Below, in pieces: positions 49,121 through 50,435 of a stretch of DNA of 64,000 nucleotides. The notes beneath the pieces were generated by a model that was not told the origin of the DNA, ran no database searches, and saw nothing but the letters and a program-made list of their open reading frames with translations. Every line of letters starts with the position of its first letter. The first letter of the stretch is position 1. The position numbers and the translations under genes were made by a program. The stretch spans positions 82,274,001 through 82,338,000 of the forward strand of contig NC_042999.1 of NCBI RefSeq assembly GCF_006345805.1, written 5' to 3'. The stretch is from Octopus sinensis. Taxonomy: Eukaryota.

Positions 49121-49236
49121 GTTCTATATTTGAGAGATGAAGAATCCTCATCTTGTTTGTTGTTAATACAACGTTTCGGCTGATATACTCTCCAGCCTTC
49201 ATGAGGTGTCCTGGGCAAATTTTTCCGATGTTGTTG

Positions 49237-49317
<81 letters not shown>

Positions 49318-49545
49318 TTTAGGTCACTGCTGAGAATCGAATTCGGGATCTTGGTGTTAGTAGCTCGCGCTCTTCACCACTATGCCATACGCCCGTGAGC
49401 AATTATGGAGTGAATTTTAGGGCTCATAAATTTAATATCTTTATATCCTTCCTTAATACCGGTTCCTATATGCTACTCATATCTGCACAAGGTCTGCCTG
49501 TGGGGGTTATTATGACGTAGCATATGTGCTGCTTCTTTATAATCA
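49121..49545 (-). mobile_element. Inverted pLTR of the Penelope element: endonuclease C-terminus + tRNA-like head (49394-49322) + microsatellite + hammerhead (49210-49164)
   Basis: Minus translation KEAAHMLRHNN..RPCADMSSI*EPVLRK; GGGCGTATGGCATAGTGG..GAATTCGATTC; GACAC-CTCATGA-A-GGCTG..CAGCC-GAAA-CG-TT-GTATT. Confidence 0.85.
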
Positions 49546-50435
49546 GTCAATTAGGAGGAAAGTCAACATCGTACGTGAAGAATTCCATCCACTTCACAGA
49601 ATTGATCAAGGATACCCACATTGGATCCAACCAGAAGGTGAGTCTAGATGTGATAAGTCTGTTCACCAAAGTCCCAACTGATGAAGCACTATCGGTAATT
49701 CAAGAAAAATTGGTGACGGATACCTGTCTAAAATGACACACCAGGAAACTAGATGGAAATGCTGACCTTCTGTGTAGAAACTACCCACTTCAGAATGGTT
49801 ATATATCGACAAGAAAAGGGTTTAGCTATGTGTTCGCCATTATCACCGATAATAGCCAATATATACATGGAATACTTTGAGAATTTAGTTTTAGGATCAA
49901 CACCACTAAAACCAACCCTCTGGGAGCGATATGTTGATGACACCATTATACTCTCGCCCCACCAGGAAGCTGTCCAAGTACTCAATAAAGTCATCCATGC
50001 AGCTCACAATGGAAAAAGAAAAAGACAATCATATGGAATTCCTGGACGTATTAATATCACGCAACCAAGTATGAATCCATGACATCCGTATACCGCAAGC
50101 AAAACTTCACTGAACGATAGCTAAACTTCAGTCTCCACCATCCATACAGTATAAAGAGAGGGATTGCTCTGTACCCAAAACATCCAGCAAAGAATTTAGG
50201 TAGCGATCCTGATACAAACCACGAAAAAATGATCAAGCTGAGTTACAATCTATTAAGCAACAACAACCCCAAAAACATGCTATCCACTACAATTAGGAAG
50301 AAAAGGGAGGATGAAACCTAAACTGACCCCAGTGTGCCTACCCTATGTGAAAGGCCTCTCAAAAAAGATAGAAAAGCTATGCAGCCCATATGACATCAGG
50401 ACAGTTTTCAAGAGTAAGACAAACTTCTCAAATAT
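49546..50435 (+). mobile_element. Penelope/Poseidon-type reverse transcriptase, decayed, truncated at both ends
   Basis: SYVKNSIHF, VSLDVISLFTKVP, YRQEKGLAMCSPLSPIIANIYMEYFE, WERYVDD, VCLPYVKGLS..DIRTVFKS. Confidence 0.93.

Follow-up and report, generated by a model that had tools for sequence, protein, structure and literature searches.

Within a stretch of 64,000 nucleotides of the Octopus sinensis genome (hereafter the window), positions 49121 to 50435 hold a Penelope-like element (PLE) whose pLTR appears to combine a tRNA-like head with A and B boxes, a microsatellite and a hammerhead ribozyme. Is this head a constant part of the element, and which RNA would start from it? The original prediction, made from this single copy, attributed the head to the pLTR of an autonomous PLE family and saw in it a Pol III cassette yielding mainly a short self-cleaving RNA; as a side remark, it added that the head may be the promoter of the element when pLTRs are in tandem. 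We examined this proposal on the copy itself and on its relatives in the 2.72-Gb genome.

Results

Structure of the copy in the window

The features of this copy are collected in Table 1. The arm on the forward strand is a decayed Penelope RT, as predicted, which matches PF00078 (E 2e-6) and shares 87% identity with the family majority; neither endonuclease nor 3' pLTR follows it. The inverted segment announced before this RT is also present: the copy consists of two inverted arms, between which about 260 nt of the endonuclease are absent (unit positions 2245 and 2507). On the reverse strand, the translated peptide KEAAHML..EPVLRK is the C-terminal end of the endonuclease, and the three-part microsatellite lies where it had been described. 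The spacing of about 45 nt first given between the endonuclease and the head has to be corrected to 29 nt from the stop codon. The size of the head and its two boxes were correctly recognised, not the damage to the B box. Similarly, the hammerhead has the stem II, the GAAA, the ACGU palindrome and the GUU site attributed to it, but its core reads CUCAUGA and its stem I contains a mismatch. These lesions and the loss of the start codon had been overlooked; with hammerhead core, B box and start codon all broken, the window copy is dead.

Table 1. Features of the PLE copy and of related fragments in the window
Feature	Position	Strand	Remark
Inverted arm: decayed RT and thumb region	49546..50435	+	Stops and frameshifts; about residues 400-705 of the 835-aa family ORF
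Last codons of GIY-YIG and stop	49424..49545	-	Stop 49426-49424; 8-nt overlap with the + arm at 49538-49545
29-nt spacer	49395..49423	-	Its end pairs with the head start as a hairpin, -9.6 kcal/mol
Inferred transcript leader, last 6 nt of spacer	49400-49395	-	Edge of 5' ends near -6
tRNA-like head, 73 nt, predicted internal Pol III promoter	49322..49394	-	From box sequences; first base 49394
A box of head	49387-49377	-	
B box of head, damaged	49344-49333	-	G of GTTC is A in this copy
(TAC)n(AAT)n(AAC)n microsatellite	49231..49318	-	
Linker	49211..49230	-	About 30 nt, including the family ATG, deleted in this copy
Minimal type I hammerhead	49165..49210	-	Overlaps the first codons of the family ORF
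Hammerhead stem I	49210-49206 with 49169-49165	-	One mismatch in this copy
Hammerhead core	starts 49205	-	G5 is C, giving CUCAUGA; extra A before stem II
Hammerhead stem II	49197-49178	-	Followed by GAAA and ACGU palindrome
Predicted hammerhead cut, GUU site	between 49170 and 49169	-	
PLE tail (5' part of ORF), with private deletion	49121..49164	-	Ends at the second of the two family 3' end clusters
Second family copy: head, (AAT)n, hammerhead, tail, without endonuclease	10599..10923	+	Starts at the first base of the head; unique flank
Third fragment: only linker and hammerhead	13396..13481	-	

No TTTT occurs on the reverse strand from 49400 to 48901, which confirms the announced lack of a T4 signal between head and ribozyme. 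ARAGORN called no tRNA in the whole window. Rfam (E<=1) detected neither a tRNA nor the expected hammerhead in positions 47000-52000, where its matches were microsatellite artefacts, and no hammerhead in the locus L211. Compared with shuffled sequences, the head of this copy folds no better (z 0.70), and the hammerhead gives a z of 0.15. The head has promoter boxes but lacks a cloverleaf.

Another abundant SINE with a tRNA head has copies at 48985-49120, cut off where the PLE tail adjoins it at 49120, and at 51480-51850. The head of this SINE is identical to the PLE head at 47 of 73 positions, no closer than tRNAs are. On the reverse strand, 52209-53313 holds two open frames that resemble a LINE ORF1. 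They measure about 190 aa and 200 aa, and one has a zinc-knuckle-like motif, CxxC-H-C; neither has a Pfam match and both contain TTTT runs.

Architecture and size of the family

The sequence assigns the family to EN+ PLEs with a C-terminal GIY-YIG domain and a single ORF for RT and endonuclease. Its majority sequence, built from 22 RT loci and 22 N-terminal loci, is a unit of 2722 nt (2.7 kb) in the order head, (AAT)n, ATG, minimal hammerhead, tail, N-terminal domain, RT, GIY-YIG, 29 nt and head again. A single open frame of 835 aa (about 2.5 kb) starts at the ATG between microsatellite and hammerhead. The GIY-YIG domain, with a CxC and two His, was recognised by eye; the endonuclease fragment has no Pfam match, while relatives at 65% identity match PF00078 and PF26215. 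A Zn-finger-like linker between RT and endonuclease marks Neptune and Nematis; no such motif is visible by eye in the octopus family. The closest relatives (clusters P0002, P0003 and P0005) are 56-65% identical. The viral contigs searched contained no relatives, and the prokaryote genomes gave one weak match. The N-terminus of a further relative, P0172 (about 56% over RT), resembles the peptide encoded by the hammerhead, and the overlap of ORF and ribozyme may be clade-wide.

As in other PLEs, the pLTR copies are in direct partial tandem or inverted at the 5' end. Three loci (L214, L215 and L213) present pLTR-ORF-pLTR in direct tandem, i.e. full-length members do carry the head, on both sides of the ORF. 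The 3' ends of 93 copies form two clusters about 30 nt apart (offsets 45-56 and 77-89), which define the PLE tail, and the microsatellite region between head and linker measures 18-381 nt in 37 copies. Copies share on average 91% identity with the majority; the burst of the family is therefore old.

We counted exact 26-mers genome-wide and found 8764 for the tail, 4062 for the head and 668 for the spacer, whose word lies 65 nt upstream of the head word. A crude correction for decay, with exact-match rates of 13/64, 11/45 and 14/38, gives about 43,000, 17,000 and 1,800 copies, respectively, so that roughly 40,000 pieces of the family would be present in the host genome. Short copies starting at the head outnumber endonuclease-bearing copies by about 9 to 1. 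The same insertion, with the same flanks, occurs in four places within 1 Mb of contig C1 (L143, L144, L146 and L147), through either segmental duplication or an assembly repeat. Another locus, L197, contains seven tRNA-Cys genes (493-3006), four of them at a period of about 156 bp.

The head as a fixed part of the pLTR

With a query spanning the endonuclease end and the head, the whole junction was recovered in all 40 scored places, the window included, at 85-88% identity. We also chose 29 loci on RT alone; eight had no collinear endonuclease end and were left out of the head count. The head follows the endonuclease end in 20 of the 21 others, and the last one keeps both ends of the head around a private deletion, which bears out the prediction that the head is built into the pLTR of an autonomous family. 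A constant distance from the GIY-YIG stop had been proposed as a check: of 99 motif matches, 72 have the head at 29 nt, 6 at 28 or 30 nt and 3 at a shorter distance. The other 18 lack a head start; two of them are chance matches, two have larger deletions and 14 retain other stretches of the head on the sides of private deletions. Conversely, the PLE linker, hammerhead or tail comes after the head in 81 of 91 cases. No TSD around the head, another proposed check, is visible in the majority sequence. An ordinary SINE inserted once into the window copy could be suspected, as head plus (AAT)n resembles a short SINE and, for 10 of the 91 heads, no linker or hammerhead was detected within 600 nt downstream. 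This explanation is refuted by the constant junction and spacing, by the presence of the head in RT-selected copies and by the PLE sequence that follows most heads.

The majority head presents A and B boxes at the spacing of a tRNA (column conservation in 92 heads, compared with the box consensus). Across the family, the boxes are kept and the tRNA stems are decayed. Among 34 tRNA sequences of the genome, Arg(TCT) is the best match (49/73); it was not retained as the source, other tRNAs being within 1-4 score points. A SINE insertion into the ancestor of the family is the likely origin of the head. An upstream AUG of two codons lies in the head as well. Among 80 foreign PLE loci, no A/B-box head was seen in a pLTR; 12 of these loci contain the stop together with a hammerhead-like core downstream. 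One of the 80 (L235) was considered as a second tRNA-headed PLE and rejected: its A/B-box element (3062-3136) lies outside the pLTRs and is followed by T runs.

Distribution of insertion 5' ends

The three samples used to map 5' ends all come from the beginning of contig C1 and favour less decayed copies. The head-anchored sample comprises 91 distinct matches from 93 loci, after collapsing duplicates. Sixteen end at +6..+29 relative to the head and 39 of the remaining 75 at -10..+5. Twelve are at -30..-11, and 10 of these look snap-back-like by eye. One copy ends at -44 and 22 end beyond -60, with one additional row; binned, 23 ends fall higher up, in the spacer or the endonuclease. About one-third of these copies keep at least 4 leader bases, and 9 of the 91 ends fall at +11..+15, the 3' foot of the spacer/head hairpin. 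This hairpin is among the three strongest 28-nt hairpins of the unit, and private deletions cluster on it.

In the tail-anchored sample (93 copies), 29 ends lie in the linker or ribozyme, 27 in the microsatellite and 37 copies reach the head. Six of these 37 end inside it, 23 at -8..+9, 1 at -14 and 7 beyond -60. Thus, of the 31 copies passing +16, 23 have their end at -8..+9. Compared with a rate of about 0.4% per nt at other positions, this is a pile-up of about 20-fold (P 3e-21). A third anchor (99 copies, partly overlapping the other samples) gave the same pattern. A tRNA-type Pol III start is expected a few bases upstream of the head, at about -6, and the distribution of ends places an RNA 5' end near that position. 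The many ends in the microsatellite show that ends are sequence-dependent; these ends in the (AAT)n tract of tail-anchored loci (L091-L120 and L371-L427) could reflect homology to AT-rich targets or RT slippage.

Among 123 intact head starts, 59 run through the spacer into the endonuclease (a class enriched by the choice of loci), 25 are mirror snap-backs on the 6-nt leader, 30 join the flank or another arm and 9 have other forms. A snap-back from the full spacer length, which is what a stall on a continuing template would give, was found in none. In the head-start palindrome, the loop reads CAC in some copies and GTG in others, i.e. in either orientation (e.g. L127, L180 and L421), as would result from a DNA hairpin opened during insertion.

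Six ORF-bearing copies have a 5' pLTR reaching the head region, and three of them start at the head (L157, L170 and L180; P 0.005). Of the other three, L152 ends just inside the 3' end of the head. In L167/L213 the endonuclease lies upstream of the 5' head and in L169 it is joined to the linker; longer or jumped templates therefore existed.

Absence of Pol III terminators

If Pol III reads through the ORF, the ORF should be devoid of T4 signals, T4 being taken as the terminator in this animal from other metazoans. The sense strand of the 2722-nt majority unit contains no TTTT. For the ORF, this absence has a P of 0.028 with synonymous shuffling, 0.030 with codon shuffling, 0.008 with base shuffling and 0.002 with composition-based codons. 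In comparison, CCCC, of equal base frequency, occurs 7 times in the ORF; GGGG is likewise missing from its sense strand (P 0.045-0.31), and under two of the nulls A5 is also low. Natural segments of the family (n = 112, sharing the same masters and thus not independent) contain 0.35 TTTT per kb vs. 2.07 expected. We selected the open RT-bearing frames of at least 450 aa in the 80 foreign PLE loci: 36 out of 37 hold at least one TTTT. The exception (L268) is a 479-aa piece, and two others (L272 and L273) hold one each, T-poor ORFs having few T4. As to a control from the same genome, no usable fragments of LINEs or other PLEs were present in the loci examined. The result gives moderate support to Pol III transcription.

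The hammerhead and the question of a self-cleaving product

In the family, the columns of the hammerhead core give CUGA(U/A)GA, in line with the expected CUGAUGA/GAAA, and are 88-99% conserved except N7. The motif shows all the features given for minimal PLE hammerheads in PMC4209133: CUGANGA and GAAA, an extra base before stem II, G10.1-C11.1, palindromic 15.2-16.2 and a stem I of 4-5 bp. An active dimer was not obtained when the family motif was cofolded in our script. Cleavage would detach the ATG and the first 23 codons from the remainder of the ORF and, for this reason, the hammerhead is a possible off-switch.

Seven of 93 ends fall at the cut site when the anchor adjoins it, and 1 of 99 when the anchor lies 55 nt further down; the apparent pile-up was thus an artefact of the anchor. 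This near absence agrees with PAc of Anolis carolinensis, for which uncut RNA is reported as the dominant template (PMC11167929). In the octopus family also, the template is apparently the uncut RNA, and RNA cut by the hammerhead is apparently not used. Under the original prediction, the head would drive a Pol III cassette for a short self-cleaving RNA, as in schistosome SM-alpha. The idea is consistent with an intact family hammerhead that lies downstream of the head without an intervening T4, and the palindromic stem III would permit dimers of abundant short RNAs. We nevertheless regard it as very improbable, given the scarcity of 5' ends at the cut site, the inactivity of minimal hammerhead monomers in vitro reported in PMC4209133 and the lack of head-to-tail arrays of the short unit among the loci listed. 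The hammerhead also lies inside the ORF in PAc and apparently in the relative P0172, as it does here; it therefore predates the head or is independent of it.

RNA reads

Three raw, unstranded RNA runs and one contig set were aligned to L214 at 80% likeness. Reads match both strands equally, with about 1,000-1,400 per strand over the tail and 1-20 over the N-terminal part of the ORF, and their depth follows copy number. In these unstranded runs, no pile of read starts or ends was seen on L214 at the head or at the cut site. The joint between endonuclease and head and the snap-back form are both represented; such reads do not separate read-through from transcription of the element itself. None of the family-bearing records listed is recorded as RNA.

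Discussion

Two independent sequence signatures point to Pol III transcription of a coding retrotransposon. That Pol III starts at the head in some form is, in our view, probable, and a protein-coding element transcribed by Pol III from a tRNA-like head appears likely. The remark of the original prediction that the head may serve as promoter in tandem arrangements is favoured by the 5' ends, the absence of TTTT and the kept boxes. We lean, though only slightly, towards a model in which Pol III reads from the 5' head through the ORF and internal priming produces short or full-length copies. Pol III would start at the head of the 5' pLTR and, for want of a T4 signal, continue over about 2.7 kb through the ORF and the 3' pLTR into the flank. 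The RT of the element would prime internally at a tail site, as in the anole PAc, the RNA's 3' end being irrelevant. Priming at the near tail would give the abundant 300-400-nt copies with head, hammerhead and tail, and priming at the far tail 5'-truncated or full-length copies. A cDNA running off the RNA's 5' end would snap back on the leader palindrome, generating the head-to-head inversions. Finally, uncut RNA would be the template, with the hammerhead acting later or as an off-switch.

A stronger version is doubtful: an element wholly on Pol III, with a captured tRNA-type promoter and a 2.5-kb ORF purged of terminators, whose single uncapped RNA would be both mRNA and template for full-length and tens of thousands of SINE-like copies. 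The role of this RNA as mRNA is the least certain part. An uncapped RNA with an upstream AUG in its head argues against easy translation.

Several points count against read-through by Pol III and keep its rivals live: the six-copy test on ORF-bearing insertions, the hairpin at the head start and the modest TTTT result. Kojima (2024, PMC10886601) further holds that Pol II is obligatory for autonomous partners, given the poor processivity of Pol III. Pol III may make only short RNAs from solo pLTRs, copied in trans by the PLE protein in the manner of SINEs, and Pol II would supply ORF-length RNA and mRNA, either from a separate promoter or by read-through from the host. Such a division would agree with the excess of short head-start copies, fit the known length range of Pol III elements (PMC10886601) and solve the cap problem; L167/L213, moreover, shows templates longer than one unit. 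We hold it to be unlikely, as it predicts neither a TTTT-free ORF nor that half of the six ORF-bearing copies would start at the head. In addition, the PAc protein is reported to need the first 172 nt of its ORF (PMC11167929), and most solo copies end about 120-165 nt into theirs.

Alternatively, the head could be the relic of a SINE or tRNA once captured and play no part in Pol III transcription, the ends arising from stalling or snap-back of the RT at the hairpin, from a Pol II start or from an RNase P-like cut. The strong hairpin at the end site, the deletions clustered on it and the minor peak at +11..+15 speak for this explanation, as do the characterised PLE pLTR promoters, which have introns and are thus of Pol II type (PMC8557442). 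It too seems improbable, to a similar degree: most ends lie at the loop and the 5' side of the hairpin, not at its 3' foot, no intact head start shows a spacer-length snap-back, and stem II of the hammerhead (-8.1 kcal/mol) causes no pile-up of ends. RNase P would cut at +1, yet many head-anchored copies keep leader bases and the cloverleaf is decayed. The absence of TTTT would also be left unexplained.

In comparison with Penelope and Poseidon PLEs (PAc; Penelope of Drosophila virilis), the octopus family has the same single ORF with N-terminal domain, RT and GIY-YIG, the same partial-tandem pLTRs and 5' inversions, two 3' ends about 30 nt apart, a hammerhead overlapping the ORF start and uncut RNA templates. 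For PAc, internal priming, uncut RNA as the dominant template and this overlap are described in PMC11167929; the promoters of Penelope and Chlamys-3 overlap an intron (PMC8557442). The octopus family differs from them by the A/B-box head and microsatellite in its pLTR, by 5' ends fixed at the head and by a unit without TTTT. Like TRIMp3 (Cassandra, Helenus and Ajax), it carries small-RNA-derived Pol III boxes in a terminal repeat, the boxes being kept and the fold lost (PMC10886601); for TRIMp3, an origin by SINE insertion into the repeat has been proposed in the same source. TRIMp3 are, however, described there as LTR elements that are non-coding, measure 311-1263 bp, possess PBS, PPT and TSD and are mobilised in trans, whereas the octopus family is an autonomous PLE with a 2.7-kb coding unit for RT and endonuclease. 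It shares with tRNA-derived SINEs (PMC3531059) short copies (<700 bp) that start with a tRNA-like head and outnumber the coding copies. Unlike those of SINEs, which are non-autonomous and depend for their movement on a partner LINE via a LINE-like 3' tail, head and body belong to a coding, autonomous element, and a PLE tail located within the ORF, in place of a LINE tail, makes up the 3' end. The type I hammerhead is common to SM-alpha, which appears to be transcribed by Pol III (PMC6765202), and to non-LTR retrozymes, which have been linked to PLE pLTRs (PMC7229834; bioRxiv 10.64898/2026.07.22.740005). Both are non-coding tandem repeats relying on cleavage, whereas the octopus ribozyme is minimal, lies in an ORF and leaves no trace in insertion ends, and the loci listed show dispersed single or inverted copies.

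In the literature searched, mostly titles and abstracts and with most subscription journals, Repbase and Dfam outside its scope, neither a PLE pLTR with a tRNA head nor an autonomous retrotransposon using Pol III was found to be described; the supplements of PMC4209133, PMC8557442 and PMC13282606 could list the family. It is probably catalogued in Repbase or Dfam under some Penelope or SINE label.

According to current definitions, Pol III elements are short and parasitic and coding retrotransposons depend on Pol II (PMC3531059, PMC10886601). If the proposed transcription is correct, a coding element with a Pol III start breaks this division of labour and provides a natural example of a long, possibly translated Pol III RNA. 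It would also show how a SINE-like family can arise directly from an autonomous element, which would combine a LINE with its SINE. With a fixed RNA 5' end, the start of the RNA, the origin of 5' inversions and the use of hammerhead-cut templates would all become testable in one family.
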